This document shows, piece by piece, positions 5,677 to 63,027 of a stretch of DNA of 64,000 nt (position 1 is the first letter of the stretch; each line of letters opens with the position of its first letter). Below the pieces are notes generated by a model. The model made no database searches. It saw nothing but the letters and a program-made list of their open reading frames with translations, and was not told the origin of the DNA. The stretch is taken from contig NC_134026.1 in the NCBI RefSeq assembly GCF_964204645.1, positions 5,479,950 through 5,543,949 of the forward strand. Reading direction: 5' to 3'. Origin of the DNA: Tubulanus polymorphus (lineage: Eukaryota > Animalia > Nemertea). Position numbers and translations under genes: made by a program.

Positions 5677-8379
5677 TCATTCCACAATGGGATCTCCCCA
5701 GACATATACTTTATCAGCTGCCGCAGTTATTAGGGTATTTTTACTAGGATGATGAGCTAATGAATGAACCACAGATGAGCCATGATCCAAAGTATCCAGG
5801 AACTTTGCCTAAAAACCGAAATTATGAAAAAATAACATATTTATTGCAATAAAAATCAGTATGAGGCTCAAGTATTCATGATTTGCTTATGGAGATGTTT
5901 TCATACTGCTGAGTCTATCGTTACGTACTTCAACTAAATCCCAAATATAAACTTTTCCATCTTCAGAACCGCTGAACACTTTTGTATCGTCTGCACTTAA
6001 ACAGCTGTCAATCTTGTAGTTATCATTTTTGTGACCAGTGTACCTAAATACAAAACATGATCAACTCAATAAAACAAGTACAACAAATAAGCTCTTCGAG
6101 ATCTGCCACAAATATCCACACATTAATTCAACAATACAGTAGAACCAAATTTATTCAGATCATTTGAGACTGAAGAAATTCATCTTATTTATAAGAAATA
6201 TGGATTAAAAATCATCACATTTTGCATACATATGGTGGATTGTAAATGATATCCAGATTAGATCAAAATCCGGATTAAACTGATCTAAATGAAGCAGGTT
6301 GCTACTGTAATGATTTTAAGTACTTCCACATCATGAAAGCCAAATCTATTTTTGAATATGAGGATCATTCTAAAGCATTTTAAGAATGGCGGACTTACTC
6401 ATTTAACATTTCTCCAGTTTCCTTATCGATAAGTTTCACCGAACTATCAAGGCTGCTGACTAACATACTCTGTCCGTCTTTCGATAAGTGAACACACGTG
6501 ACAGGCTCTGAAATAGAATAATATGTTCCAGTCTCTATCACAGTGTATTACATATATATGAAAAACAAATTGATAACTAGGGTCCAGTTTTATAGATCTA
6601 TTAGAAGCATAAAGCCCTTCATTAAAATCATTAATTCAGGATAAAAATTTGTAACACAAAATAACACAAATACTCTCGATACAGTAAGTGAGTCCCACAA
6701 TTTACACAAAATTGTTTTGATCTTTTTTTCAAAAACTCCAGACTATTTCAAGTCTTGATAATTAAACCAACCCACTATATCAATAACAACAACTGTTCTT
6801 GATTGAGGTTTCGTGTGGAATCCTTCTATTTTCAGAGTTCATTTCAATATAAACTCTGAATATGGGTGAAAGGATTCCACCCAAAACGTAAAGGAAAAAC
6901 AAAACAGTTTGAATTGATATTGAGGCTATATCTTAATGAGAGTCTGAAATGTTCTTCAGGAAAAGTGAATACTGCAGATGAGTAATTCGAATAAATATGT
7001 GCTCAAGGAAACATTTCGTACTCTTATGATCCTTAGTGTCGGATTTGATACTTTATGATGGGTTTACTTACGTCCAATGCAATCGACAACCATCGAACCA
7101 ACTCTCAAATCATACCGCCGTATCGTACAATCAGCTGATCCAACTAGTATCTCATGATCTGATACCTGTATCGTTGTTACGCTATCCTTCGCTTCATTCA
7201 AAACCTTTCAATAAAAAAAGTAAAGCACATTTTTGTCCTAGTGAAGCAATCGCATTAAAAATGAGGCTGACAAAATCGATCGAGTTAAACAAAAGTCAAA
7301 GCTTATAGGATTGGAATATGTGTTAGAAAATAAGTAAATGCTTGTTTTTGTCATAGTTGGTCAAAGGTTAGTCAGTAACCTGTTTGTGGTTTAGTTTCAC
7401 GATTGGATATTTATCATATTGAGCATACTGAGTTAGCCAAGCCATGTTGATAAAGATTTACTGCATTGAAGCTTGATTTAATTTTCTGCTCTCATCATAT
7501 CTACCGAGACATTGTCAATTGAATTTACCTGAACTGGTTCCATTCGTCTGCTTTTGACATCCCATATTTGAACTGTTCCGTCGATTGATCCAGACAATAT
7601 GAGCGTCGATTGTTCATTGAAGGATACACAATTAACTGTTCCTATTGAAGACAATAGAATAGCTGTACTACCGTCATATACACTTCATGAAAGATCTCTT
7701 AAATAAGACATTTAGAGGCAAGGATAAGCGTAATATTCTATTGATATTTTTGCTGTATGAGCTAGTGTATTTGTTGTATCAGCCTTCACTGGATGGAGCA
7801 ATTAAGGGTTTCGCCAAACGACATAGTAATAGACCTAGCATTGCAAAGTAAGCATCAGCCTTCGGTATGCTATCGATTAGGCCTAGTGCTTACCAGCATG
7901 TCCTCTGTACTTTCTCAGGACCTTTCCCGAGGCAACGTCCCAGTATATGACAGTCTTATCCAATCCGCAAGAACAGATATTTGTATTATCGCAAGAAGAC
8001 TGAGCATCCAGTACTTCATAACCGTGACCGCTGTATGTTTTCAGGAGAGTCGAAGTGATCGGATTCCATAGTTTCAACGATTTGTCGCTTCCACAAGTTA
8101 AACTAAAATTTCCGTCAACTAGAAGAAATTACAAATAAATTGCCATCAGTATTTAACTAGATTTTGTCAAAGTCTAGTTAGACCAAGGCTTACACATTAC
8201 AATTGCACACCAAACAAAGGAATTATAAAGGATAATCTTATTTGGCGAGTATTAGTAATTTTGTTTTATTTAATTGAACGTTTTTTAAAGTTGAATGAAG
8301 TTCTCTTTTTAAACTTGCCGTTAAATCTCGCCGATCGCACAGCTCCCTGTTTGCAATCTAATGTGATTATCTTCTTCAT
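5677..8379 (-). CDS. WDR83: WD repeat-containing protein 83 (MORG1)
   Basis: Exons 8379-8319, 8118-7894, 7641-7529, 7204-7072, 6507-6399, 6043-5929, 5808-5677, all phase-consistent. Peptides TLDCKQGAVRSARFNVDGNFSLTCGSDKSLKLWNP, YSGHGYEVLDA, YTGHKNDNYKIDSCLS match WDR83. Intron 1 has a GC donor. AATAAA on minus near 5560-5565. Confidence 0.95.
6740..6950. mobile_element. Degenerate foldback; each arm resembles a decayed Penelope-type hammerhead/pLTR segment
   Basis: Inverted arms gtttcgtgtggaatcctt...ttttcagagtt / aactctgaatatgggtgaaaggattccacccaaaac, with outer matches aactgtt/aacagtt and atatcaat/attgatat; centre ~6845. Confidence 0.55.
7369..7416. mobile_element. Terminal fragment of the repeat family at 53858 and 62898 (opposite orientation)
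   Basis: tagtcagtaacctgtttgtggtttagtttcacgattggatattt is the reverse complement of the right end of those copies. Confidence 0.75.
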
Positions 8380-11536: not shown

Positions 11537-11648
11537 GAGTCGACAAAAACCCACAATAAAAAAAAATTTTGAAAATGGCTCATAGATTTGAGTCGAAACG
11601 TCAAACTATCAGATAGTTTTTCTTTTTTATTGTGGGTTTTTGTCGACT
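11537..11648. repeat. ~26-bp inverted repeat within a dispersed repeat (related sequence at ~55890-55977)
   Basis: agtcgacaaaaacccacaataaaaaa / ttttttattgtgggtttttgtcgact; the pattern ggtttccat...aaaaccca...ttttgaaaatggctcat recurs in CMPK1 intron 3. Confidence 0.7.
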
Positions 11649-21100: not shown

Positions 21101-24100
21101 TTAAAGCATCAGGGACCAGTTGCACAGTCGTGGCTTAAGTCCAAAAGTGGTCTTAAATCTTAAGACTGGTCTTAAGTTGTTAGATTGGCTATAGAACTAA
21201 GTTGGTCTTAGACTGGTCTTAGGTCTGGCTGTGCAACCAGCCCTTGGGTTCAAATGGGCCAAATGGTCTTAATATTGGACCAAAAAGCTTGGGTATTCAT
21301 ACTCATCATATTACACATACCTTCTCAAAAGAATTATACCCATGATACGATTTACACATTATCATCAGGTATCGAATGTTGCTTTTAGGTGTCCTCCACA
21401 GCCGGATATGGCCTTGCTGATTGAGTTGCAGATGGCTGAAAGCACTCACGCCAAACTCACGACGAGAGCTTGGTCGAAAATTGACGTATTTGACGACCAG
21501 GGAAGAGTTAATACCGGCCGGTGGAGAATACAGCTGAAAAGTTTACCAATTAAACCGGAGCTTTCGTCGCAAGAAGTTAGCACGATGCCACCTGTAAGTT
21601 TTTGATCGCCATTCTGACCGAGACATTCGAAAGTAATGTCCGCGCAGGTTTTTGTTGATTTGTTTGTGTTGATTATAGTACGGTCAGTTGGAGCTTTATT
21701 TGCGTTTGGTGAATCATCGCGATGCAGATCGACAATCTCATGCATCTATTACTACTTCGCATGCTAACAGTTATAGGAATCCTCCTGTTGTAAGTATCCG
21801 CTTTAAACGCTTATGGAATGAAATATACAATAATGTGGAATTGAACATTTTTTGACTGAAAATTGTCTTAAAGGACCTGTTAGCTAAATCAGAAACTTAA
21901 AAAGTTTCTGCAGTCGATATGATATAGGAAACCATAATTCTTCATTTAACTTTAGAATCTCATTAGCATTGAACTGATCGTAACAAACTGATGAAAAATA
22001 ATTGTATTCATTTTGACAGCGTTTCCACAATAGCCGAGGCTATTCACCTGCAGTCCAACCTCAGTATCAACAAGCTCCGACACCTAGACATGTAAGTACA
22101 ATACGTAACAGTAATCAAATCTACTAAAGTTTTATGATAAGGGGACAATTCAGTTACTGACCATCTTGAATCTGTTGAGAATCATAATTCTTTGTCCGTG
22201 TCTGGAAATAATATGTTTTGCATTGTTTTACATTCGATCTGAATGCACAAATTGATTAACTGCCTGGTGTGAGTACCTAACTAATGCATGCCTTATATAA
22301 CACCATCTTCATTGCAGAACTTTAGAAAATATGTTTGTTTTGATTTAATCGGGTAAACGTTGATTTCACTATGTTTGTCTCTATCTGCCGGATTTATAGA
22401 AATTAGTTTAAATCTTAGAGAGAATCAATTCTTGTCTGTTCTACTGATAACTTGGTCATGGTTGATTTCCGAACTTCTGTCTGAAAAAGTAATAAAACTT
22501 GAAATTTGCTCATATAAAGATGAGCCTCTATATTTCATTCTAAACCGTGTAAACATGTAGATTTAACTTCAGCAATACCCGTGTACATAGAATTACTGTT
22601 AATATTCTCCACCTTAGATACCCATGAGATTTCTGGGTCTAGTCAAATTTCGTCAGAGCAAAAATGTTACCCTAAATTTCTTCATTAATTCAGTTTAGTC
22701 AATTGAGCAGTTAATCTTTTTGCGAAATACGCCTTAGACCCAGTTCCACGTATGAAGAGATGAGCACCCTAGTATCGGCTAGTTTTGAAAAAACCAAAAA
22801 TTACAAAATTTGCTAAAAAGTATGTTGATTTGACTGTGTATCCTTGGTCGCAGATATAAGAAGCAAAATTGAGCAAATGTATACATGGTATGTTGTCTTA
22901 TGCAGGGAAGAAATCATTATGAGCAGAGCGAACTAGTTGATATCTTTAAAGACAAATATGATAGTAGAAGCCAGGTATATACATACAGTGGTGCATGTGT
23001 ATGGTGTTGGGAGTTCATCAACTGATATATACTATTCTAAAATCAAATTTTGATTGCTGTGAATTAGAAAAATCAATCCAAGATTTATCAACAAGGGCAC
23101 AATTTGTAACCATGAAAAAACAAATCACATTTATTTGTGTTGATTATGGCTTTGTTTAGCTTAGGAAAAACTGACTTAAAAGCATATGGATCCAGTTCCA
23201 CAGTTGTGAGTTGGAGTTGACTCTGAGTAAAATCAGCTCACTTTCAATGAGTTAACTTTTAAACTCAGAACTATGGAAACGGGTCCAGGCTATTTGGGAA
23301 AATTGACACCGGTATTTTTCATAACCAAACTAAATCTGTTGTAGCTTTAGAGTAGTTCATCTTATAGTTCACTGTCTCTTCTGCAAAGCTTTCGCTTCTG
23401 CTTATAGCTCTACGATGGCATGAATAGTTTAAAAAACTGAGACTTAATCTGAGACCCTTCACTTGAAACCTCAACCAGAAGAAACCCAGTCCATTCTTCC
23501 ATCTGAATTGTGCTTATAGTAACCAACTTTTAATTGAAAAGCATCTTATACCGAATCAAAACATAAGCATGTACTTACTTAAGGTTTGAGTTGATGTTCA
23601 GGAGAAAGGGTAGAGCATTTCATGATTTTATGTAGTTGGTCCCTCAATTAATGAGTATTTTGATACTGTCTATGCTGTGGTAGTGTAACCCATCAGTCTT
23701 TCTGTTTATATCTCTTTGCAGGCCATTAGTAATTCTCGGCCAACTCGTCCTCCTACTACTACTACCACCACTGCCCTGATCCCGAAAACCGTTCCACCTA
23801 TACCACCATCCGCCCCACCCAGACATATTTCTACACCTCCTGTGCCAATTATTGAAACGCCTCAACAAAATATCGAGACTCATCGATCTAATGTGGATAC
23901 TGCACCTATTGACGATGATAACAGGTAGGAATTACTGGGTGGTTTGGGTGAATATGTTTGTTATAGCCACATAGGCTTTTGCTGTGTCATGTATGAGCAT
24001 CGTGTTTCCGAAAAGAAATAGATGTTGGCATGGACGGTAGTACCCCGATAGTCTTTCCTCCTAGCGCTTGATAGCAACTGCTTTCGGTAACTTTTCTCCA

Positions 24101-29478: not shown

Positions 29479-32400
29479 CTAAACTTTATGTTTGATCTTC
29501 TTCAGAATATTACTCTGTTCTAAAGCCGCTCTTCTTTTACGCTGAAAAATAAGAAAGAAAATGCAAGAAAATAAACAATAAATCAACTACATCACAATAC
29601 AGTGTATAACAAATAACTCAACGAATAGAAGTTACTCACCAGTTCTCCAGAGTTAGGTGTACCCGGTGTTCCGACTACATCTATCGTTTCTGAGATCTTC
29701 TTCTCTTTTCCCGGTGATTCGTTTATAGATACATCGATCGCTGCTAACGTCGACGAGGTTTGCGTCATGTTCAGGATCGGACCCAAGTCTAAAGGCTACA
29801 GACAAAAATATGTAAGGAATATCTATAATGCTTTCGAAACAAGATAGGGTAATTTCTTCTAGGAGTCCAGCTATGAACAATGCTCTTACCTTTCCAGGCG
29901 CTAATTGCTCGTATCTGTGACGTAAAGTTTGTAGCTCGTATTCACAATTCGCCAATGCTACCTTTAGTTCGTACAGTAATACAATATCTTGTCTTAACTC
30001 GTTAAAATTCTGTACAATTTCCTCCGAAGGTATAGGATTGAATTCTGAAAATAATTTCAATAATTTCATAATCGAGGACTAATCTATACATATGAATTTC
30101 AAAACGTCATTTTTTGATACAGTCAAACCAACTCAATTTGGATAAAATTTTATCTAATCTAAATATCATTTACCAGTATGGCCCAGCTATACGTAAATGT
30201 AAGTAGAATATGATGTTTAATTCAGATTTCCTATAAACCGCATTCACTTGTCCCTTACCTATTCCCAATTCTTCTAAAACTTGTTCTAACGCTTTAGTTT
30301 TCTTCTGTCCAACTGACGAAGGCAATTTCATCTGAGAAAGTAAAGGAATGGTTATCAATTAAGAATTGCAGTTGTCAACTATACATAAGGGACTGTTCTT
30401 GAAATTCATATAAGAAGAGGAAAGAATCTTGCATGTTCCATTCGTGTACAACCCCTGAATGAATGTTTTGATTTGAGAGATTACCCTTTGGCTTCTGAGC
30501 GTGACACCGGGTTGTTTGAAATCGGGGAATTTAATACCAGTCGTTTCTGGAACGGTCTGAAAACAAAAAAGGTATAACGGAGTAAGTCTAACTCAAATAC
30601 AAGTCATCGGCGATTGCTGATCTAAATCATCAGTATCCCTACCACATCTTTACTCTTCTGCGTGAAAGGCATCTTCTTTTTCGGGTTTTTCTTATCGTGT
30701 TTGCGAGCGTCGACGTTACTGTCGGCGGCCGTTATCAGTTTCTGGAGATCTTGTGTTTTCTTTTCTCGTTCTTTCTTTCTTTGCTCGATTTTCTTCAATT
30801 CATTCATGAGATTTTCTTCCTCTTCGATCTAAAATGCATAGAATAATAGAATATTTTGAAGCCATCAGCATTTTCACAAATAATCAATTAATTTACTGTT
30901 ATCATATACATGTAGTTAGGCTTTTACTCATTTAAGAAAGTGATTCAGCAGAATTAGCTTCTACTGACAATACGTTGGAGTTAAAAGAAAGAAAAATATC
31001 ACCAACTACAGCAGAAAAGAGAAATAACAAATGTGCACTTTTCCCCCCCCCCCGAGACCCTATCATAAAACAAACATGGGGCCGGTTCCATAGTCATAGC
31101 TCAGTATAAGACCAGCATAGTTCTAAGCCAATCTAACAACTTGACACTGGTCTCAGGAAGGTTAAAGACCACATTTGGACGTAAGTCCCCTTTTCCTAGA
31201 ATGCAGTTTCACTGCGCATTACATAGCGGTCATGCAGCTATGTGCTTTTATTACTTGACAACGCCATATTGAAGGTCATACACAATGGTATATTTACATG
31301 AAAAATCCCTGAAATTTGCAAGTGACCATATCATCTTTTGTTAAGTATAGCAAGTCAACACTGATGGGCTAACAAACTAAGACGTCTATCATGGAGGTTT
31401 TTATTTTGCGCTGATACCTGTTCATTAGTCCTGTTAAACAATTTATTCAGTTGGTCTTTTCGTCTTCGTTCGTGATCGGCGTCAAATACTTTGACTTTCG
31501 CTTCGTGACCGGGAGGAGCGTGCAACTAAAAATACACCGAAAAACATGAACAGCCGCTAAAATCTTCAACAGTTTAATGCCACAAAGAAATGAAATCCCA
31601 TCCCATCTATATGAAGTAGATAAATTTCATTCTTAATAATCTTAATAATCTGTATTTACTGTACTCTCATCAGATTTAATCATAAATTCACAACCTACTC
31701 AAGTTTTTTGGTTTCTCATTCCAAAACTCTTTATCTATCTTTTTTCGAATATTTCTCGACGTTATCAAATTTACCTTCGTTAAAATGTTACAAATGCCGT
31801 AGTAACGCTCTTTCAAATCTTCGACGCTTCGTTCGGAGAATTTCTCGCGGTCCCACCGATCGTGCATGACGATGAATCGTAAATCGAACCGCCGTCCCAA
31901 CTCGAACAGATGATCGGTCTCCTGACGAGTCCATTTATCGTCGTGTAAATTCTGCTGGTATTCGATGTCGGAGTACGACGGAATGTCCACTTGCTGTACA
32001 TAAACAATTGGAACTTCGATGAATAAATTCATGAATACGTGTACATTTTGACGAGTATAACACTACTAGGGGGAGTCCCAGAGAGGCGCAGTGGCCGAGT
32101 GGGTTAAGCCGCCAGTCACTGGTCTCGTCAATCCAGGGTTTATGGGTTCAAACCCTGGTGGCGACAGAGTTTCTTGGTCGAAGGTTCTTCTCTGGTCTCT
32201 CCCCCATTGGGAAAAAGAAACATCGAACCCCCTTATAATGCCTTGTGTGGCGCTGATTTTGATTTCACGAACACCCTTTTTAACTTAGCTTAGCGGGTTA
32301 AGGGTGTTAAAAAAAAGAGGGAGTCCCAATTTGGCTTTGAGGTAGTTAGATAATCCAGTATCTGCTGTATGAAATCTTTGTTTGTCTTTAATTTCATGAT

Positions 32401-33814
32401 ATGAAGGGAGTTGTGGAGGGCCGCATTGAATCAGAGTAAGCATAAAGACAGCACTGCGTAGGTTTACTAGATTTAACAGAAGTACGAGTTTTAGCAGCAA
32501 CTATATGGTAGCTGCATCAAGTAGATGAGTCACTCATTTTACGAAAAGCATGAAATCAAAATCATCGAAGTACATGTAGTTTCTTCAAAAATCAAAGATC
32601 CTAACAATAACGTACAAGAGGAGGGTGATTATAGAATCTAATCGAGCCTCTCTACAAAATTGATAATAATGACGACACAGTCTAATAGCCGCAACTACTA
32701 TGCCAAGGAAACAATTTGTATTAGAATATATAGTAAATTATACCTTATTGAATCTTGCAAATGGATAATCCTTTCCTTCATCGGCCACCCTTCTCCAATG
32801 ATAGAACACTGCACCATCCTGAAATTTTAAAGTAAATTTTAACATTAATTCCAAGATAATCTGATTTTTACGATATTCTTCAAAAACTTTTTAGGCAATG
32901 ATTCGCACCTTTCTGGCTGGATTGGTAAATGGCATCCATTTCCACGGTCGGACTTTACTGCGACCGATCTTGGCTTTCATTTGTTTATAGCCCGATTGTG
33001 GACTATCAGTCGGAATTATCGGCGGTAAATCTCTGCAAAAAATCAAAATATCAAGACAGCATAAGTTAACACTGATGGACACGTTTTAACTTTGCAAATT
33101 GTCTAAAAGCTGCTACAGCCTACTTCACCCATATTTCTTGGGTGGCCACTTTTATTATGTCATTTGATCTTTCCCTGAATTTTCCCTGGCTATTCCCTGA
33201 CACTCAACAAATTTCACTGACTTTTCACTGACTTTTCGCCTTTTTACAATTTTCCTTGACTTTTTTAAAGAAATGAAATTCCCCTGGCTTTTCCCTGAAT
33301 TCCAGGTAAGTTGCCATGGTGTTTTTGAGGAAGTGCAATCTAAAGTAGAGTACACTTCAAGTAGTAAGTAGTGATATTTGAAACGTCTGATATGGTATGC
33401 AGATCAAGAAAGTAGGCTTTGTGGTTTGTAATTGCTGACATAACTTCTTCATACTTGCTATCAGTCCACAGAAGTCCCCATAGTTCTCTGTGCATTCCTT
33501 CTGGGCGTTTCTGTTGCGTTTCAGTTTTCTTTGTCTTTTTCTGTTAATAATAGAAACAAACAAAATATATTTTCTTCTAGAATTCTGTGAAGATTCAAGA
33601 TTGCAAATGGCTGGTAATTCGCTATAGATGCTCGACCAATAGGACCTTCACGTTTATGGCTAAATTATTGTGGGATTTTTTCTCGGCCTCGACCAATTTC
33701 TTAAGAAAATATTCTTACCTTTTTATCGGAAGACATGATTGCATCTTTGGTCATCGGTTCACTGCTGACCTCCCCGAGCTCGAGGATATCTCTGACATCA
33801 CTTACAGCCGCCAT
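29479..33814 (-). CDS. DMAP1: DNA methyltransferase 1-associated protein 1 (NuA4/SWR1 subunit, SANT domain)
   Basis: Exons 33814-33719, 33540-33455, 33032-32909, 32818-32744, 31993-31775, 31525-31418, 30828-30643, 30556-30485, 30331-30259, 30044-29890, 29795-29640, 29541-29479. Peptides SDVRDILEL, KRPEGMHRE, VRPWKWMPFTNPARK, WTRQETDHLFEL..RSVEDLKERYY, KKTQDLQKLITAAD. Confidence 0.97.
31078..31190. mobile_element. Truncated Harbinger-like MITE (family of 21113)
   Basis: ggggccggttccatagtc...agccaatctaacaactt...agaccacatttggac is the reverse of the 21113 copy; the right TIR is missing. Confidence 0.65.
32081..32318 (+). mobile_element. Full-length tRNA-derived SINE with 10-bp target-site duplication, antisense in a DMAP1 intron
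   Basis: A box TGGCCGAGTGG (32092), B box GGTTCAAACCC (32145), 3' hairpin aacaccctt...aagggtgtt, A-rich tail; TSD gggagtccca at 32071-32080 and 32319-32328. Confidence 0.85.
33140..33320. mobile_element. Degenerate DNA-transposon derivative with TTCCCTGA subrepeats
   Basis: gggtggccac followed by repeated ttccctga/ttcactga motifs; same family as 16975-17179. Confidence 0.55.
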
Positions 33815-35174
33815 TCTTCAAACTTCAATTCAGTAGAATATAATTTTATTATTGTGATGAAATTGTATTGAATTGAATTGACATGGATGCAAAAATGGGA
33901 CGGAAAATCGCTTTCTTCGACACCTTTTGGTTCAGCTACAAAAATTCTGTTTGGTCAATTATTTTCAGAAATATGCTCTCCTTAAATGCATCTATTGTTC
34001 ATGTAGCAGATATAAGCATTTATTGAGATAATTCACCTTTTTCTGATTGTTTTTGTAAAAATTTGTTCAAATGGCAAATCAGCGACCGCTTTTAATAACC
34101 AAAGTCGATATTCGAACGGACCGGCGTACGGATAACTCCAAAGCTATTCATACGGAACTAGCTCTAAATAAAATCTGGTGATATAAAACCTGGCATGGCA
34201 TGGCATTTGGTAGGGCATGGAATGCAAAGACAAATGGAATTTGATATTTTCTATTTTTCAAATTCCGCAATTATTTTTTCTAATTGCGGCGATTAAAATT
34301 CGCGGCAGTTTTTTTGTACCGAGTGCGCCTCGGCAAATCTCGCTCCTGTTGTAGTGCGTTTTGTCCTCTCCACAGCACAGTCACTTTCGTCCTTGAATGA
34401 AAATTGGCCGAATTGCAATGCTTGATGCTGTTCCCCTGTCGAAGACCCTCACGACAATGACCATTGGTGACGACGAAGGAGTGCTCCGATATTTGTTTGT
34501 TGACGGAAGTAAAATCACATGCGCAGAGTGCGACGACGCGCAGGTTTAAACATGGAGGCGAGCCAACTACTCTAGCAATGTATTCTATCTACTGGAAATA
34601 CGCTCGATTTTCTGCTGTTCAACATTCGCCAACGGCATGAAAATGCGCGACGATCGTCGAGTAGATGTTACTGATTCGACGGATAGCAAAGACGCGGTTT
34701 TAAGACTGTGTTTGTTCTCGGAAACGGTCACTAAAGTTGAAGCGACGCAACAGGCATTCGATTCACGGCACATAGTTATCAGAAATACACACGGCAATAA
34801 ATAAGTAAATGATAATTCGATATCGAGAATCTTATATTCTTGGCTTCGTTATTGTACATTGAGAATTATCGTCAAAACCAGTGAATTGTTCATAGCACCC
34901 CTCTTAAACTGAGCGATGATTGCATTTTTTGGCGATGTTGGCCGCCACTGCGCCGCTGTATGCCTACCATTTCATCGCTGTTGGATAGTTGTCGGATTAT
35001 CGTATCGCCAAAAATCAGTTTTGCATTGCGAGCGATCTTGTTCTAAAATGCATCGAACAAGTTAAACGGAGTATTGCGCTGTAAATAGTGGCGAGAATTC
35101 GTGAATATATCATCGTAGAATTTGAGGCGCGGTTCGTTTCGAACCAACGAGACATTTTGTGATGAAGTATCAAT

Positions 35175-38100
35175 ATGAAAATTTTGATATTATTGCTTTG
35201 TATGATTCTACAACTGCTTCCAGCAACTGGGCTTATAGGAGGTACGTATATGCTTCAGTTTAAGTATCTGACAGTAGACAGCGTTCATTTTAGATCTTTT
35301 CCTTGGCATCATAAGTGATTTGAGAGGTAGCAGGTCAAGCCGTACCTAGGTCAAACCCTGTTGCAGACTTGTCCCTGCATTCTGACAAGCTGTTCGCCTC
35401 CCCTACTTAAAACAATTATTTTCCTGTTTGATATTTGACTATGATTCCTGTTTGACATCGAGACAAAGCAAAAAACACATAAATCTTCCCTTTTGCGACA
35501 TCAGATGTACGGGCCTTCATGTGTATATAGATTTTTTTTCAGTGAAAAACCCTTTTTCTGATAACGGTTTTACATTTAGTACCTTTTTTTTGTTAATACC
35601 AGCAAAAGCGGGTAATCTTAAACAAGGTAAATGTTGAGCATAGTTAGGTAGATTAAGTGGTACGAATTGACCAGGTATGAGTTGACTGGCAGGCCTTATC
35701 ATTTGAGAAGGTGAAGGGTGGGGGGATATTGTGACCGCCAAACTCTGTCGCCTCTGATACCATTCATTGAGACTGCAGTACGCACGAGAGGCTGATGCTG
35801 AAAATGACCGGGCTACTACCTCTCTGATCACAAATTGAATGATTAGCTAGCCAATCCAATTTGAGTAGTAAAAAGGTCAGAAAAAATATTTTTTCAGCAA
35901 TTAGCCCTATGTCGGAGTTGAGGGGATTCTAGGCCTACTGTATTTTCATTTTACAGGTGTTTACTACTACCAGCCATCTGAGCGTGTGAAGGAATCGGGT
36001 CATTCTCCTCTATTCTAAAAAAGCAGTCGGCCTTTATAGGTCAAATTAGAGTGTCGATGCCCTTTTTCTCTTCCGCGTTGTTTTATTTTTTTTTATTGTA
36101 AAAAAAGGTTAAATCCACCGTTTTTATTTAAGCTGTTTTTTCGAAGTATGAGAAGCAAACGTGTGATAAAACGGCTTGCGTAACGTATAACAGAGCGACA
36201 GTTGATTGATCTATCAGGATTGAGGGAGTACTGCCCTTAAACAGTTCATTCATCTGTCTGGAAAAAATTAATACGATTCTCAGATCATTAGCGTCCCTGG
36301 TAGGTTGTTGCACTAGAGACAAGCGAGTTCGAGTCCTGCTGGCTACTTACAGCGTGCTGGCAACAATCCTAAGGTGACACCTGACGATGATCTCTAGTGT
36401 GAGATCGAAACGTCGCGTTCTTATATTTTAGATTGTTTCAATAAATGAATTCTCGATTTTAGATTTCTTTTAATTTTTAAATAGTGGGTTTCTATCTTAT
36501 CATCTGTTCACCACGTTTGAGTGTGGTTATTGTACCAATCGTAGGGTTAGTCTGCGTTACTAGGAGGCAAAAAACGTTTCATTTTATTGAATTCAACCAA
36601 AATCTTTCCGGTTATACCAATTTGAACTATGATTTAAGGAAATTGATTTCATGATTGATCACATTCATTCAGGATATGTCTATGTGGTGCCTGAACTTAT
36701 TCACTTCAGAATTCATCAGCCGTTCTAGAATTCAGGTTACCAAAGAATCTTACGCCCGATCGCTTAATTCTTTCCATCGTCAAACGAATGGATGCAAGAA
36801 TTTGAGAAAGGGGGCGCCATTGGTCCAATTAAGATGTGGCAGGCAGTGCGGGACGGCTGTACCGTCCTCTCATGGTCGCTTCAGTGCGGTGCTCCCCAAA
36901 TGGGTCTGTCGGCCTTCCTCCAGCAAATTTTGAAATATTAAATGCTTTCTGGTGCATTCTTAGCACTTTTTGCTAAAAATCGAAAGATTATAATGACGAA
37001 ATTTGTGTAAAATTTTTTAGCAATGAGCAATGTATCTTTTGAGCTGATATTGACTATGTTTTTTAAAAGGTTTAGAAGAGAGCACACGGCGGGTATGTCT
37101 CCTTTCGATCTGCCACTAGTGATGTAAACAAAAATTGTGATTTGATCATAAAATACTACAATTTTTGAAGGTTTTTTTTCACTAAGTGGATGAACGTATT
37201 GTGTGCATTTCAGCCAATGATAACAAATAGCAAATCTTCAATCCCGTTGAGTAATAAGAAATTCATGCTAATGAATCATATTTAAAATGCTTGGACTGAT
37301 TCACGAGTCACTTGCCAGTGGTGGAATTCGGTATTTTGTAAAAGCATTTTGAATACCTTCGGCATGTATTTTTAGAAATCGCCACGTTTTTTTCCGCTGC
37401 CTAACATAATAATATTCATGTTCGTTCCTTCAAAATTGATGGCTTTTCAGCTCATCTTGACAGAAATAATTCCATCTGCTACTGATAGATAAATCAGTAA
37501 AGAGCGAAGCACGAGATGATGCATCAGGAGATCATTCATTTCTCAACTTATTCGTTTATATCAACCAGTTCGAAATCGAAGATAATAACTTTTTAGAGGT
37601 CGATTTTGGCAGACCAGAGAATACTTTTTTTTCTATCTATGGCAAGATGTCGACCCTCTAGATGGCATAATTTGAGTAGTAAAGCCAAAGGGTTGGATGG
37701 ATAAGACAACTCAAAACATTATGGAAGAAGTCACATCAAACTTCGTGAGGCTTATTTGCTTTCAAAGATTTTTTTTAGTAGTAGGCCTCGAGGATTGGCC
37801 AGTATCTACCTATCCTATTTTCATATTTAGTGCGGCTGCTTTGGAACAATGGACAGTTTTCGTTTTCGGCACCTTTATAGTCGTAACGTTGCATTGTAAG
37901 CTTTCTAGATTGTTTCCGAATGATAGTAATCGGTTTTAAAAGCAATCTTTGAAGTTGTTATATCATTGATTACACTGTTATATGAGTAATCTCGCTCATG
38001 CCGGAGTTGTTTTATTTCGCGCCGAGCGTAAGGGCAGAAACGTATCGTGTTGGACCCGGGCCAGGAATGTTCTGTCATTATGCCAATGCTTATTCGCTTC

Positions 38101-41100
38101 GGTATCGTAACGCACCGTGGGTGGAAGAAATGGAAAGATATTTAGCATTTTTCGTTTCGGATATGACACGAGGTTCCTCCTTGTGAACCGGTGAACTTCG
38201 GTAAATTACCGGCCATTTTTCCTGTAGGGCCTAGACCGTCGAGTGCGTTCCCGGTGCGTAACCTTACCGGAATAAGATTTCGAAATGACGACGTTGCTAG
38301 ACAATTGAGAGATCCTTTTAAAGCGTTGATCAAAGTCCGGCGATGACGCCCTGGGCAAAGTTCTATCCGTCGAGAATATTCCCAATACTTTGAATTCCAT
38401 TTGCACTTCAAAGTATTGACTCAATCGTGATAAAGAGTTATTCATGCTGTACTGGCTACTACTATTACTAGGCCACCACCAAACGCGTGGCGGCTGACCA
38501 GCTTGTATCCGGCTGTTTTCGGTTTTAAAAATGATTTTGAAGAATAAGGTTTTTCGAGAAAAAAAATAAATAGGTTTCATTTTTTATCACCGCGCCCAAA
38601 AGTTTGAACGGCAAAAAGGGAAGATGGATTTTTTATTAAAGAGAAAAAAATCGAATCTATGCGTTATATTTAGTTTGAAAATCTTTCATGCAGGTAGTTC
38701 TGGTGAGGCGTACGCTGGAAGAGAATGAACGATTTCGGAATATCGCATGGCCGTAATTTTTTCATATCTGCAGCTCTGCGGCGAGCGTACATATCGCGTT
38801 TTGAATATTTTTAACGCCGGTAGCTCGGGTAACTCGGGGAGGAGCGCAGGCAGTCGTAGTCGTGTATACTCAGTTCATTCTACGGTTTTACACATGTATA
38901 TCAAATAGAAAGTGTGCATGAATGGCTTCGGCTATTCATCGCGAGAGAACATTGTCCCAGTTTGAACTCCCGGCGAACAAAGCTGTTCTGAGAATTTCGC
39001 CATCCCCGTACAGAAGCTACGAATCGACGGTGTGCCCCCGTGATGTCGAAAAATTCATATATTCTTACTCGAAAAACGGCTCAACGTTTAATTGCTTTTT
39101 AAACGTTTAACGTCTCCTTTTCTGTAGGTGATACACGTGTATCATCAGAACTACGATCATTGGATCAGAAAGCATGATAATCTATAAAAAAGTGATGAGT
39201 GATGGGATTGTATTACAGCTAAAAGCGCTGAGACAATTTGGCCTTGGCCGCATTGCCCCAGATCAGGCCCGAGTCAAATATGGCCCTTGCCTTATTAGTG
39301 CGCACATTCACACGAAAACCATTCACTCGATACTTAAATGAAATGAGTCACTTCTGGAACCTGTAGCTAGAATTTAGCTCGGGCCTGGTCTGAGGTTTTT
39401 GGTTGGGCTAAATTTGGCGTGTACGTGTGAACAGTTGTTGCAGGCCAAATTTGCTTGTGTGATCGCGGATATAGTGGACTCTTCAGAAAGATTAGCCCTG
39501 TCCCCTGTGCCCAGCCTTTAATGAAAAACAATGTGAATGTTTAGCATTTTGTCCTAAATTCTCATCGTGTTATCCGCCCCTTTTTGTCGATTATCCAATA
39601 ACGATCTCAAACAAGGATATTTTAGAATGATAAAAACATTTAATACGATTGTCAATGTATTGAATGCTTTTAAGATCGTACAATAAATTTTATTTTTAAC
39701 GAATATTTTCTATGTCTTTGTCTGACCTGTATTAGAGTTGATTAGCCTATAGTCATACATTCTACAGACTAATGCGATTGTAATCGACGATTAACGCAGT
39801 CCTGTCTGCTCCATACTTAATTCAACGGGTCTCAAAACCAAGCGTTAAATATTTACCTGCGCTCACTTAAGGGTATTACCTCGTTTAGCCTCGAGTTTTT
39901 AATGTAATCGATTCCCATGACTGTTGATGACACCATGTTTTAGTTTCACTAAGTTATTTTCATAGTTGTATAAATCAGAGGGAGCTGCTAAACGCTACTG
40001 TCGCAATCGAGGATTCCACTTATGGCAAGCGAGGATCCACCAGGTTCGCTAGTATTTACTCGGTCTTCTGCGTTCAATTTCTTCTACATTTCATTTTTAA
40101 GTTGAATGAACTGTTCTCTCGAATAATTCAATTATTAATGAAAAAGTACTGAGTAGAAACAATGATTAAATGTACATGGTATTTCGTGGGTCCTAAGATA
40201 ATTTATGGATTCCGGAGCCTAAATATTCAGTTCACAGTTCGTTGATTGTGAACTAATTTTGACAACGTAAGATCGAGCGCGAGTCACGCCATCTTGTGTT
40301 GCAGTTCCCCATTCAAGTTCATGATTATGAATGTGCGGGAACTATCAAAAACTAAAGCAAACATGGATTTAAATGAAGTTGTATTATATTTCTTTCTCAT
40401 TGCGTTACAGATGTAATTGAAAAGGAGCCTACTAACTGTACAGTATTAGTCGACTCGAAGACCACTCTTAACTGCCAAGTAACGCAAAATAATACTCAGG
40501 TCATCTGGCAGAAAGGACTGAAGAATCGACATTATTATGAGTTACCTCGTAAAGGGCCTAACTTCCGAATGCTTCGTTCCGGTTCGCTACGTTTTCATCG
40601 AGTGAGAATGTCCGATCAGGGTTGGTACCGGTGTATAGTTCAGAATTCACACGGAGTCAAGCTCGATCAATCGGATTACGTGTTTCTTACCGTTCAAGGT
40701 TAGCCGACAAATATTTTTATTTCTTACACATGAAATTATCTATGTCCCCGTTGTATTATCCCTGCCTTGATTATTGCTTGAATGACTAAAATCTCATCGT
40801 CAACAAATCGATTCATTTTATACTAATGCCACATCACCTTTTTGTGTGGTTATGCCTTACTCGGTGCTAACACATTTTCAGGAAATGGGAAAATCCTTCT
40901 TCAAGTCTGCACTAGTTTCAGATTTGTTCCAAATGCTAGTTCATTTATAGGTCTTGCTTGTCTGTTCATATCTTAGATCCTTTGGTTGGTTACTGGGCCG
41001 ACTCGGCCCTGTAAAGCCTAAATCAGGTCGTGTAGTGTCAAACCCGATTGTCAGATCTTAAGCAGATCGGCAACCAGTCGCCAGTTGCCAATTTTTCAGT

Positions 41101-44100
41101 GAGACAATATTTGTGGCAAGAGTGTACCGGTACTTCAGATTGTTAAAACTGATCGGATCGTAGACCAGTCATAAGCGCAATCGTCACCCGATCAGGCATG
41201 TTCTACTACCTATGATGATTGGATCTGAGCTTACTTAAAGACCTTAAGATAGTAGCCAATGAACAATTATGTACACATCACATCACTAAAGCGGTCGGTT
41301 CAAAATGATCGTGGATCTCGGGTGACCCGAGTGTAGCTGAGATCCAACAAACGAGTCTTGGTCGAATCGGCTATTTGACCTCGTGATGTGACGAATTTTG
41401 CTTAAAAGACCAAATCGCAGATCATCATCAGATCTGATCTTAGTACGACCTGAGTTAGGCTTTAAAATGATGAGGTCTGAAAACTGATCATCGTTTATCT
41501 TGCAGCTGTTGTTGAGATACCTTACGGTCGTGCACCTCAGGATCGACGCGTTAATTACGGCACTGAAATCGAGATCAAATGTGAAGCAGTCGGTAAACCG
41601 ATGCCTAATGTTAGCTGGACAAAAAACGGACAAGTTGTAAGTAGTAGTCAGCACAGAGATATTAATGCATAATCGTATGTAAACAAGATGAAATTAAATT
41701 CATTTTCAATCTGAAATCTACCTAGCATCTACGGAGCTACTGGTAGGCCCAGGAACCAGTTGCATAGTCATGGCTTTTAGAGTTAAGACCAGCTCGGTAA
41801 TAAAGCCAAGCGAACAACTTTAGGTACAGTAGAGCTTACTTAATACGGATGACTAGGGACTGCCCAGATTTCTCAGAATTAAGTAAAATCCGAATTATGA
41901 ATAATAGTTTACGTGGCTCAAGAGGTTAAATGGACAAGTTTTTTCATCCGAAATTAAGCAAGTTCTACTGTATATATCTTAAGATTTAGGCCACGTTAGG
42001 ACTAAAGCAATTGTGCAACTGGTCCCAGAACTGTAATTAATATAGACCTCTTATCGACATGATTTGAGTTTATCACTCATCACTCATTGTCTGTGTTTCA
42101 GATGGCCGAGGAAGAGAATAAATTCATCATCAAAGTAAACGTGACCGAGTCGGCAGTGTACGGATGTACAGCGGTCAACACGGTCAACGTTAAGGGTAAA
42201 ACAGTGATACAACGATCAGCGAAAATTACCATTATTAATTCCGGTGAGTCGATGAATCAAGCGGTTGTTAATCCTCTTTTGAACGTACTGGTCGTAACTG
42301 TGTAAGATTTCAAGTATCTTATAATAGGTCTTACGGGTTTTGGAAAGTTTTCGAAAATGGGAATTTTTTTCCAGGCCTTCGAAAAGCTATAGAATTTTTT
42401 TTTCTCTTTGGCTACTGAAAAAGGTATGCATGATCATAAAAAGGACTCAAAATTTTCCTTCTATTTGAAATTTTAGGCTACATGCCCTGACTAAACATCT
42501 GGGGCCAGTTGCTCAAAAGTTGGTTAAAGATAACCGGCCGTTTAATACCAAAGTAACAATGAAATTTCAATTGTCACCATATCAACTATCCACTGGTTAA
42601 CTCTTGCCAACTTTTGAGCAACCAAGCCTGATAACAAACTTTATGAAAACACTTTGTCGATAGTCTAAAATTTCAAGCGTCTGTGATTAGTTCAGTACGC
42701 CAGTATGTCTGATCGATCAATTCGAAAAAGTATTTCTATTATTCCTAGGCTACTTAACATCGTGTGTCGTAAAAGATGCGAAAACCTATTGTGTTAATGT
42801 GCATCACAACACGCCATATGGCGCTAGTGCGTTGTTCGACGTAGGTCCCCCTCCTCCTCCTTGCGTGTTATATTCTCGAGAATTATATTATCATCGGTCG
42901 ATTCAATTTAATGTGTTTGTGATTTGTTGATAAAAAGAACCGGTTATCGTCTGCGACGCAAATCTGTGTGGTCCGGACCATCGACTCACTACTCTTGTTG
43001 TTGTTATTATTATGCTGCGTGTAATAATCCATTCGACGAGCTGGTCCTCGTCGGGTTTTTGTATCTGGGGCGATATGCGAGCCTCAGTCGTGTTTATTCC
43101 ATTGAATTTCGGCGGCTGGCTTTGTTCGCGGTGGTTGTAAACCGGGCGAACGCGCTCCCCGAAACCGGGCTAGGTCAAGTGATATCATTTGTTAAATAAT
43201 CATGTATAAATTTCGTATCTTTTTGAGAATGTTGCCAACCGTTTGTTATTGTCGATGTTCGTTTCGGTTGGCGACATATTTCTTCGGAGGAGTGAAATCC
43301 TATTAACAAATCTTTTCATGATTCGTTCTCTTTCATGTTCTTCGATTCCCGAATGGAAAATGAAAATTCGGTAAGTACACGCGAATGTAATGATAATGGA
43401 TATTTACGGTCTTTTACTTGAAATATCTCAACAGACTTCACAAATTACAGATATAAAACATTGGACAAATAGATAAGATGATAGTATAGTAAACATAAAA
43501 CAGTCGGCAGAAATCGGTAAAATCCCGAACTAACTTGTTTCCGGCAAAAGGTTTGCACGTGAAAAATTTTGAAGTCTTTTTCATAAGATAGGGTTTCTAG
43601 TCGGACAAAGTCTACAAAGTGCATCCTTTAAAAAAAAAAATGCAGGATAGCCCTGATTAGCGCTTGCTTTTCAGGTAAAATCCTGAAAGCACTGCCATCA
43701 CGCAAATATCATCACAGATTTTATCATTGTCTATTGTCTCAGTGCTGTCCTCTTACTAGAAAATAATTCTAAATTTTTCCTGAAATTTGAGAAATTTGTG
43801 AAATTTGATTGACATTTTCCACAATCCATAATCCAAAATCGGGTCAAAATGATTAGTTACCGTCCAATTTTCGATTTGTGATATTTATTTTGATAAAACT
43901 GCGAGCATTTTAAAAGTACAGGTGTTGTTATTTGAAAATAAAACACGTTAGATTCAAACCAGGCTTAAAGAAATATTAATAAAACAATTTTTTTTATGAA
44001 GTGTTCCACAAAGATGATGACTCTCAAAAGAGAGAATAAAGAAAATTAGAAACGGACTTTGTCAGTGCATGCTGTGAAATCAATAAGACAAATGTGTATA

Positions 44101-47034: not shown

Positions 47035-48257
47035 AAATAATGTCTACCCGTATAATAATGTGACGGCTATTTCTTTTTGTCTGGGATAAATTCTTTTGGG
47101 ATATTTCGCTTTTTATCTTTTGAACGCATACCTCGATTTGGTCTTAATAGGACCGGTGGAACTGTGCAGTTTGAATTAACCACAATTTTTACACTGTGCA
47201 AAATTGATATGAAAACGATGGCTTATTCTGACTGCACAGTTTTACTGGTCGTATTAAGACCAATCAGAGAGGTGTGTGTTCAAAAGATTAAGCAAAATAT
47301 CCGCAAAAAATTTGATCCCAGACAAGTGAATAGACACTAGAAAGGTTCATATTCAATGACTTTTTCAATAATCAAATCAAATAGTGGCAAATATCGGTGT
47401 CATGTGCGTAAGTGCGGTATTGATGTACTAGAGATAGATATTACAAATACTGACGTTATTCTTACCAGTTCTTTGATGATGTATTATTATTTACTACTGA
47501 TGTATTTGGATGATTTTATTTTATCGAATTATTGATATTACGATGAAGAACAGCACTGAAAATATACAATTTATCGGAGGTTGTACCTTGTCTTAAACAC
47601 TGCTGGTGTATGTTCGATATGGAGTTGAAAATGGTCAGTTTTATCGGAGATGATTATTATCACTATTATTATAATGACCGGCCTGTCCCCCTGAAGAAAG
47701 CAGTATTTCTGCAAGGTGCTGAAAAATGATACATATAGAAATATATATTTGCGTACAATTGCTCAATATGAAAATAATAAAAGTAAAGGCTTCGAAGCTG
47801 GTCTTTAGCCTGTAGAAGTTCTAATTTTTAGATGTACAATTTTTATGTGTAGACCTTCTGTACAAAGTTGATGGGTGTCACTAGCTTCCCTTTTACATAT
47901 GCTGCCAACTATGAGATATCTTGTACGTGAAGTTCTGCCATTATTGCTGCTACAAGTTATTTCAGTTATGTCATAGTATTTTGTCCTCTTTTGCAGAACT
48001 TCCACTCGGGCAATCGGAATGACATGTGGTTCCATTGGCTGGCAGTGTACGCAATTTCTGATTCATTGTCAATGCTCATTGTTTATTTTTCCTAGTATTT
48101 TGAGTGACTGGTCGTAAAAACTGGGAAGAATTATCATCGCAGAGCACTTGTTTTAAAGACTCGAAAAATTTATGTAGAGCAATATGATTTCAAAAGGAAT
48201 AACCGGTCCTATTTATCAGATACCACTCTAATTGTAGAACATGAATTACCATGATTT

Positions 48258-48868: not shown

Positions 48869-49027
48869 ATTTTTCATTTCATACACGGCTGTTAGCTGGT
48901 GTTGATTAGGTACCGTGGAATCACAATTCATTTGCAGCAGAATCACCATTTTTCATTTCATACACGGCTGTTAGCTGGTGTTGATTAGGTACCGTGGAAT
49001 CACAATTCATTTGCAGCAGAATCACCA
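48869..49027. repeat. Perfect 79-bp tandem duplication
   Basis: atttttcatttcatacacggctgttagctgg...cagcagaatcacc begins at 48869 and again at 48948. Confidence 0.95.
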
Positions 49028-49244
49028 CAAGTTAGTCCTCAGGAAGAGGGTGTATTTTCTTTTGCTTAAGTACTAGAGGCAGCCTTAATACAGTGTATTA
49101 ATTTTTATATAGTGATTACAATCTTTATAGCCGAACTGCTAATTTTAATATGAAACGGAAAAATGAGAAAATAATAATAGCACATTTTTTTGTCACTGTG
49201 GAACGTTTATTTGTATATTATGAAGTATGTATTGTATTATATTA

Positions 49245-49404
<160 letters not shown>

Positions 49405-53039: not shown

Positions 53040-53857
53040 ACTGAACACGATATATTAAGTCTTTACGTTGACGTCCCTTCAAAAGCAACCCAGCAAAAAT
53101 AGATGCAATAGGCTGGCCTTATTTCAGTCTCAAAAAAAGACATGTACGAGTTCCCCGCTAATTTGGGGAACAACAACGAGCTAGTACCTATTTTAGCTAG
53201 GTAAGTAAGAGACTAGACTTTTAAGCCTTTTTTCAAAATATTTGCGGAAAAACAATGGATCTTTTGGTTTTGCATACAAATTCTATGAAAGACCTTCGCA
53301 AGTGTAACTTGTGTAACTATTTCTCACAGGAAAGGTGAACTTTAGGGCTCTAATTATCCTAAATTAGGACTGTAAAATAGAAATTCTACTTTTCAATTTA
53401 TACACGCTCAACAACCTTGAGTCAGAGTGCCCAGTCGTAACCGAAAAATCAAATTCCAATTTTTTTATTGCGCCTTTACACTAACACAAATGTTTGTTAG
53501 ATTACTCGAAACTCTTAGTTAAAGAATTATTGAAACACATTCCGATATCCGAAGGTTTTACTCATTGTGAAATTGGGAAGATCAGCACTTTAAACATTGG
53601 CCGGAGGCTGTATTTTAATAGTAGTAATAGCGGTCGGTAGGTTATCGTGCGAGTATTTTCATTTCCGCATGTGACGTGACATGTCATTCATTCATTCGTA
53701 CATGTGTAACTGCACTATTACCACCACTGTCCGTCTCTGAGACTCTTCTACGTTTTTATATAAAAAAGGCAAGATCTATGATCCTGATTATCTGTCAGTG
53801 TCTTCCTTTTTCCACATGACTTACAGGGGCCTGGATTCAAAAGATTTGCGTCAGGCC

Positions 53858-53971
53858 TAGTTAGTTACCTAATCGTTGGTGGTAAGCTTTTTATAATCGG
53901 ATGGGCTTATACCAACGTGGTTTGTGAAAATATCCGATCGTGAAACTAAACCACTGACAGGTTACTGACTA
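53858..53971. mobile_element. ~115-bp non-autonomous element with imperfect TIRs and a 9-bp TSD
   Basis: cgtcaggcc|TAGTTAGTTACCT...AGGTTACTGACTA|cgtcaggcc; near-identical copy at 62898. Confidence 0.85.
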
Positions 53972-54027
53972 CGTCAGGCCCTGCCTGTGCCTGTGCCTGT
54001 GGGACTAACTCAATCTGTCTGCTGGGC

Positions 54028-54161
54028 CCACAGGGGCTCGTATCAGAGTTGTAGGTAATGTAAAAATGATAATCTGTTAATCCTATTATATATACTATAG
54101 ACATTGGATTAACAGATTATCGTTTTTACATTACCTACAACTCTGATACGAGCCCCTGTGG
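54028..54161. mobile_element. Near-perfect palindromic MITE
   Basis: ccacaggggctcgtatcagagttgtaggtaatgtaaaaa(t/c)gataatctgttaatcc arm of ~55 bp repeated inverted around a short AT-rich loop. Confidence 0.9.
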
Positions 54162-54196
54162 CTAGGCCTGGAGCGATAACCGATACCCGTTCCGGT

Positions 54197-54349
54197 CACA
54201 GGGGTTGGTATCAGAGTTGTAGGTAATGTCAAAACGATAATCTGTTAATCCAATGTCTATAGTATATATACAATAGACATTGTCATTGGATTAGCAGATT
54301 ATCGTTTTGACATTACCTACAACTGTCAACTCTGATACGAGCCCCTGTG
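54197..54349. mobile_element. Second adjacent copy of the palindromic MITE
   Basis: Same arms with two small internal duplications (cattgtcattg, caactgtcaact). Confidence 0.88.
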
Positions 54350-55014
54350 GTCCCGGTTTGAGTTACTTTTGACATATATAAACTTATTGCACAAATTTTA
54401 AGTATAAAAGGACCATATCCAAGGTTCCATTTTAAGTTTTAAAACTGGTAGTATGTAACATAGAATGGACATAAGTGTGCGGGCAACACTTTTTCAAACC
54501 CAAAGCCCAAAGGCTGTCCTGTTGTGTGGTTTAAAATGAACCAAAAAGTCTTGGGAAACCATGATCAGGAGGACTCGTCTAAACAGCCTGAAAAAATTAG
54601 GGGATGCTTCATTACTTAATTCTATTTCCATTAAGCTTGTAGCTAACGATTGTAACAAGTAGGCCTGTATTTGGCTTACCAGTGGTTATGCCAATTTGAA
54701 ACTTCTTAGCCCTAAGTGAAGCCATTGTTAGTATGGCAACTTTTTTTTTTCGTATATTAATAATTCTTTCTCATCGCAGATCATTGAAAACCCACTTCAA
54801 CCAGACAGATTTATTGGTAACACGTGTCGTCTCATTCTAGCAAACCTTTTATATATATAAATACATCTGCTGCCTTGAACAGCAGCAGTTTTAATAATAT
54901 TCAATCACGGGTCTTATACCAACTAGTGGAGGAGGCGCTTTCATTTCACGTTTGTTCGACTGTCACAAATTGATCTCCAGATATTCAGCATTAGCCAAAA
55001 GCGTCGTAAGAAAA

Positions 55015-62811: not shown

Positions 62812-62897
62812 CTTAGTTAAATCATTCTCTCAAAACACTGTCCTGTAATTATTACAAATAATAGACAGTGTTGTAGTGTGGTGAGTATGATGAGGCC

Positions 62898-63027
62898 TAG
62901 TTAGTTACCTAATCGATGGTGGTAAGCTTTTTATAATCGGATGAGCTTATACCAACGGTTAGGTGGTTTGTGAAAATATCCGCTCGTGAAACTAAACCAC
63001 AGACAGGTTACTGACTAAATTTAGATA
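62898..63027. mobile_element. Copy of the 53858 element with a 9-bp flanking duplication
   Basis: gatgaggcc|TAGTTAGTTACCT...AGGTTACTGACTA aatttagata|gatgaggcc. Confidence 0.8.

Follow-up and report, generated by a model that had tools for sequence, protein, structure and literature searches.

A 64-kb window (the whole stretch of DNA analysed here) contains, within a presumed intron, a hammerhead ribozyme motif lying just downstream of a B-box sequence. A sequence-only reading had joined the two into a single element ending at 36445, tRNA-headed and SINE-like, that may represent an undescribed SINE or retrozyme family mobilised by Penelope reverse transcriptases. The locus therefore raises the question whether head and ribozyme form one repeated unit. 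Our preferred answer, held at a probability of roughly 0.78, is that two repeats lie side by side, a Penelope-like hammerhead element of 160 bp and an older SINE-like fragment of 48 bp (Table 1). The type of hammerhead proposed in that reading was upheld; the SINE-plus-hammerhead unit was not, given the separate borders and the candidate target-site duplication (TSD) described below.

Table 1. Features of the locus and its host gene, in window coordinates
Feature	Position	Strand	Remarks
Likely first coding exon (signal peptide) of a MuSK/Nrk-like receptor kinase gene	35175..35241	+	phase-1 GT donor
Presumed first coding intron of the MuSK/Nrk-like gene	35242-40410	+	AG acceptor 40409-40410
Single-copy stretch with A-box-like motif and 5' hairpin arm	36289..36317	+	outside both repeats
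48-bp fragment of a separate mid-abundance repeat	36318..36365	+	strict B box 36327-36336, T-arm-like stem
Candidate TSD, left copy, 12 bp	36364..36375	+	10/12 identical to right copy
High-copy hammerhead-bearing element, about 160 bp	36376..36535	+	contig depth, end piles, joints
Minimal type I hammerhead	36376..36419	+	stem I (mismatch 36379/36416), core, extra U, 6-bp stem II, ACGU
AATAAA of the element	36440..36445	+	in 3 of 4 runs, loose-end majority behind 36415 has it too
Small hairpin close to the conserved 3' end	36510..36527	+	minimum free energy fold of 36490-36545
Candidate TSD, right copy, 12 bp	36536..36547	+	flanks the hammerhead element alone
Next exon, Ig domain	40411..40700	+	Pfam Ig_3, E 7e-10

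Two repeats with separate borders

Copies of the locus elsewhere were followed in Logan DNA contigs from four public runs of one organism (X1 to X4), which represent at most two samples and one study; X1 is possibly the source of the window. At 80% likeness, 1306, 434, 212 and 261 contigs (X1-X4) mapped on 36100-36699. Summed depth over these contigs does not equal copy number and only its steps and ratios were used; 20-bp depth bins are too coarse for the 11-bp gap at 36366-36376, and rare variants are lost from contigs, which also break where repeats occur. Results on loose ends and on contig pieces hold among those listed (24 of 444 rows and 32 of 2319, respectively).

In X1, depth was 27 up to 36299, about 7,200 at 36320-36359, 186,000-241,000 at 36380-36419, 25,000-171,000 up to 36539 and about 28 after 36560, with steps at 36318, 36377 and 36535. 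The summed depth of the hammerhead exceeded that of the B-box fragment by factors of 33, 13, 21 and 13 in X1-X4. Hammerhead copies start at 36377 behind unrelated flanks in 49, 21, 18 and 15 contigs (X1-X4), and these flanks agree poorly among copies (agreement 0.40-0.45). Copies of the B-box fragment run on past both of its edges into common sequence that differs from the window's: before 36318 in 12 (X2) and 8 (X4) contigs (agreement 0.65), and after 36365 in 29, 20 and 13 contigs (X1, X2 and X4). Both repeats, each with its own borders, and the hammerhead motif are present. Breaks at 36365 and starts at 36377 place head and hammerhead apart in other copies, an outcome that the sequence-only reading had itself named as evidence against its single unit, and recurrence of the two together was not found in contigs, which would drop rare variants. 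No weight was given to the absence of a bridging contig, since contigs fail to bridge the window's own locus too. In the right flank, the window and an X1 contig differ by single bases at 36580 and 36589, reflecting allelic variation or error.

The ends of the hammerhead element pile up at 36377-36378 and 36530-36535 among the contig rows listed. Single pieces, among those listed, cover 36381-36531, so the hammerhead and the 3' end belong to one unit, which reaches about 36535, 90 bp beyond the end at 36445 given by the sequence-only reading; the AATAAA that it had pointed out is in place. By eye, the piles at 36530 and 36535 resemble two sequence variants of one end, which gives no support to a pair of 3' ends such as the optional 30-40 bp tail of Penelope-like elements (PLEs) would produce. 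The small hairpin near this end is no better than in shuffles (z 0.34), and a depth peak lies at 36500-36519. Flanks past 36530-36535 are AT-rich, and a poly(A) majority is absent. The 15 joints listed comprise eight with the opposite strand, three that go back and four that skip; seven of the 15 are opposite-strand joints starting at 36377-36382, and two are tandem joints returning to 36377-36378. Tandem joints of the element exist elsewhere in the organism's contigs; the window copy is a monomer. In three of four runs, the last five letters of the loose-end majority before 36377, together with 36377-36380, read by eye as the reverse complement of 36397-36405; this may be a 5' palindrome or snap-back junction like those described for Adineta pseudo-LTRs (pLTRs), or else folding that keeps stem II from forming. 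We also considered, and rejected, that 36250-36311 derives from the hammerhead end as a degenerate copy in inverted orientation, as 285-639 of 2798 other stretches of the window score as high.

Upstream, the strict B box beginning at 36327 lies 50 bp before the hammerhead, and 0.74 strict matches are expected per 64-kb shuffle. The fragment that carries it is likely, from its sequence, a piece of a tRNA-derived SINE. It shows no difference of at least 5% from its repeat family in the contigs, which is as compatible with a recent capture as with a long-standing neighbour. A possible continuation of the SINE through the target site into the right flank agrees in 6 of its first 9 letters, by eye. 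A second strict B-box match, at 10880-10871 (-), shows neither an A box nor tRNA-like surroundings and is probably due to chance.

The remaining parts of the proposed head fared less well. Depth at 36280-36299 was 27.4 in X1 and 0 in X2-X4, and the excess in the bin 36300-36319 amounts to only 0.8-1.4 plateau positions in the four runs, so neither the A-box-like motif nor the 5' hairpin arm belongs to repeated sequence. With two mismatches to the consensus, this motif is no better than two neighbouring positions. The claimed pair of boxes is thereby reduced to the B box, which is a strict match and the only one of the two within a repeated head; the A box is single-copy and at background level. 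Similarly, the hairpin described as enclosing the B box remains as an inverted repeat (36301-36311/36360-36371). Comparable inverted repeats occur in 13 of 639 tiles of 100 bp (1 of 153 when GC-matched), and the predicted fold of 36270-36450 does not surpass that of its shuffles (z -0.78), which does not support an enclosing hairpin.

The Rfam search that had been suggested for the hammerhead gave no match at the gathering score, neither hammerhead nor tRNA; none of its 13 weak matches overlaps 36289-36439, and ARAGORN found no tRNA at the site. These blanks say little because a clear SINE head at 32085 was missed by Rfam too. The latter, at 32085-32300 (+) in an intron of DMAP1 (a gene on the - strand), is a clearer tRNA-type head, with an exact A box at 32092 (0 mismatches), a B box at 32146 and a fold z of -4.0 for 32085-32170. 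It was also missed by ARAGORN and by BLAST is unrelated to the 48-bp fragment.

With borders taken from the contig evidence, the candidate TSD around the hammerhead element scored 6, against at most 1 for six composite border pairs. A score as high was obtained in 83 of 3893 random border pairs and in 42 of 4945 GC-matched left flanks (p 0.009-0.021). No TSD was found around 36318-36535 (best score 0), nor was one found around head and tail together in the six border pairs (best at most 1). These results lend modest support to insertion of the hammerhead element alone.

The hammerhead and its host intron

The Penelope-type minimal hammerhead named in the sequence-only reading was confirmed, with core, stem II, GAAA and ACGU all in place. 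The core CUGACGA occupies 36381-36387 and is followed by an extra U at 36388, a perfect 6-bp stem II (36389-36394/36401-36406), GAAA at 36407-36410 and a palindromic ACGU without a loop at 36410-36413; cleavage is predicted after C36414. In terms of the general CUGANGA/GAAA/UH core, helix II is closed by G10.1-C11.1 with an extra nucleotide after A9, and 15.2-16.2 are palindromic without loop 3. A descriptor of such minimal hammerheads (min-HHR) matched once in the 64-kb window and in none of 300 dinucleotide shuffles, both strands included. This descriptor, applied to the 64 kb, revealed no second hammerhead, self-BLAST of 36201-36600 gave no second copy in the window, and viral contigs had no match to a hammerhead pattern.

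Stem I is paired at 4 of 5 positions; the second is the mismatch A36379 x C36416. This mismatch is particular to the window copy because other copies carry the pairing T at 36416 (25,593 of 25,814 X1 depth, about 99% of mapped depth). Across contigs no difference of at least 5% was seen at 36318-36415, which amounts to conservation and not to stem covariation, rarer variants being below view. The monomer is predicted to misfold, with the core pairing with its own cleavage site (-15.6 kcal/mol for the inactive fold, -8.0 for the active one), and stem I pairs have a probability of at most 0.14. In a two-strand fold, computed with a model that leaves out pseudoknots and tertiary contacts, ACGU pairing was absent.

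The sense-strand placement of the hammerhead within a MuSK/Nrk-like gene, in its first coding intron, also proposed earlier, is supported by the exon structure predicted from sequence. The segment 35175-35241 is the best hydrophobic ATG..GT candidate in 33700-40400, and its phase 1 donor puts it in frame with the Ig exon starting at 40411. The best relatives of the kinase exon are at most 56-59% identical, the named ones being from molluscs and arthropods. This intron has three AATAAA on its sense strand, that of the element included. An effect of the element on the host pre-mRNA would be unlikely, because the copy is alone, its stem I is mismatched and it is predicted to misfold.

Besides MuSK/Nrk-like and DMAP1 exons, the window has exons of mago nashi and of a vasa-like gene (258-1415, -), which has a DEAD domain and an exon encoding five CCHC knuckles in tandem 87-bp repeats. 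Four fold-back (MITE-like) inverted repeats (54024-54354, 47077-47325, 11538-11648 and 6794-6901) are without a hammerhead by the min-HHR descriptor. Two dispersed repeat families are each represented by three pieces, one at 53853-53971, 62893-63017 and 7368-7412, the other at 21134-21243, 31079-31185 and 41977-42029. An exact 80-bp tandem duplication and a long (TA)n tract lie at 48869-49027 and 49243-49401.

Comparison with known hammerhead-bearing elements

Judged by its sequence, the 160-bp element resembles in build the end of a PLE pLTR that carries a minimal hammerhead. It shares with the min-HHRs described in metazoan PLEs (PMC4209133) the long helix II and short helix I, the extra nucleotide between 9 and 10.1, the G10.1-C11.1 pair, the palindromic 15.2-16.2 without loop 3, and an occurrence mostly as single dispersed motifs with some opposite-strand pairs. 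Helix II has 6 bp in the window, compared with 7-8 bp reported there for S. mansoni families; host and sequence family are new here, and no ORF linked to the window copy was seen. No reverse transcriptase or GIY-YIG domain, as an autonomous PLE would have, was found in the 40 of 151 window ORFs scanned, a point against our reading. PLEs are described as forming partial tandems and inverted copies next to their 5' end, as leaving solo pLTRs and as making TSDs of 8-10 bp (PMC8557442, PMC3846280); the inverted and tandem joints of the present element match this layout, in favour of the PLE reading. Its unit size resembles that given for the Adineta Pen2a/Pen3a pLTRs (181-218 bp, PMC3846280), and the inverted and partial-tandem joints, the length of the candidate TSD and the AT-rich flanks are like those described for endonuclease-bearing (EN+) Penelope/Poseidon elements (PMC3846280, PMC8557442). 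The target and tail traits seen here are the 10/12 duplication, AT-rich loose ends and the lack of a poly(A) majority; the anole Poseidon protein is reported to cut AT-rich DNA and to start reverse transcription at fixed internal sites (PMC11167929).

In the anole Poseidon element PAc, stem II is described as the start of the ORF, 26 bp ahead of the cut (PMC11167929). In the window, A9-U-G10.1 likewise spells an ATG at the base of stem II, 28 nt before the predicted cut, but its frame closes after 14 codons. Regarding activity, a single min-HHR was reported not to cleave in vitro (Cervera & De la Pena 2014, PMC4209133), cleavage by the Poseidon hammerhead was described as needing protein (PMC11167929), and 8 of 9 Xenopus dimers are given as uncut (Li, Clavereau & Pollet 2026, bioRxiv 10.64898/2026.07.22.740005).

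Two other systems resemble the locus in part. Animal non-LTR retrozymes are described as short, non-coding and pLTR-related, with a type I hammerhead and with monomer copies common, introns included (PMC7229834; bioRxiv 10.64898/2026.07.22.740005), as is the case here. Tandem units each bearing a hammerhead, a retrozyme trait, are not found in the window, where the copy is a monomer with one hammerhead that is minimal and sits at the 5' border. The Schistosoma Sm-alpha/Sj-alpha repeats, as reviewed (PMC6765202), are superficially similar in that a type I hammerhead follows a Pol III-type motif. In them promoter and hammerhead make up one repeated unit, in contrast to the two repeats with separate borders in the window. 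Joint recurrence of head and ribozyme, which defines an Sm-alpha-like SINE, is missing for this locus in the contigs.

Proposed neighbouring insertions and the alternatives

We consider 36376-36535 likely to be a solo pLTR or a short non-autonomous derivative of a PLE. The fixed 5' border favours a short non-autonomous family over the truncated end of an autonomous element; not being expected from random 5' truncation, it also counts against our reading, as does the imperfect TSD of modest significance. In the proposed course of events, PLE reverse transcriptase and GIY-YIG endonuclease supplied from elsewhere in the genome would have made a staggered cut beside the old fragment, copying of the element RNA would have begun at its fixed 3' end and stopped where the hammerhead starts, and the 12-bp duplication, altered at two positions since, would have been left behind. 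The ACGU hammerheads of tandem master copies may cleave as dimers, as published for the class, and the lone window copy would most likely be an inert passenger in the intron.

A true composite, in which a tRNA-type head and a Penelope hammerhead tail are driven by Pol III as a single unit and the window holds a member of a rare subfamily, appears very unlikely. It draws on the strict B box 50 bp upstream of the hammerhead, with 0.74 such matches expected per 64-kb shuffle, on the published pairing of a Pol III promoter with a hammerhead in Schistosoma (PMC6765202), and on the loss of rare variants from contigs. The A-box part and the 5' hairpin arm are, however, single-copy, copies of the B-box fragment enter other sequence at 36365, the depth of the hammerhead is 13-33 times that of the head, and the candidate TSD falls between the two parts while none brackets the composite. 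A rare subfamily of B-box-hammerhead pLTR fusions, mobilised by Penelope and hidden under the abundant headless element, seems to us equally improbable. Should the composite prove to be a family, it would represent a SINE that relies on the enzyme of a Penelope element instead of a LINE; in titles and abstract openings of the literature searched, no such SINE was described.

The two parts could instead have been inserted together once, as a chimera produced when a PLE reverse transcriptase, on arriving at its template's 5' end, switched to a SINE-like RNA. The fragment is short and internal, differs nowhere by 5% or more from its family and abuts the 5' end of the element, and capture of unrelated sequence by pLTRs has been published (PMC3846280), but the candidate TSD separates the parts and none surrounds 36318-36535; we regard such an event as improbable. 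Of similarly low probability is mobilisation without a PLE, the 160-bp element being a non-autonomous DNA element, Helitron-like or other, into which a hammerhead was captured. Both ends of the 160-bp element look fixed, the loose-end majority has TC a few bases before 36377, and the 3' end reads CTA plus a pyrimidine with a small hairpin inside, features that we take to recall Helitron ends. Against this, head-to-head inverted and partial-tandem joints are frequent, the min-HHR is intact and accompanied by AATAAA, the hairpin is no better than in shuffles, and a candidate TSD is present; to our knowledge, Helitrons make no TSD. CTAY as a Helitron terminus had no match in the literature searched.

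On the preferred reading of neighbouring insertions, the locus is unremarkable: animal genomes contain thousands of lone Penelope-type hammerhead ends, and this adds another. Host and sequence family are new for PLE-type minimal hammerheads; the kind itself is already known. The headless element holds modest interest: it seems to be very abundant and to have its 5' border fixed at the first base of the hammerhead, and such an element would suit the study of how bare pLTRs amplify.
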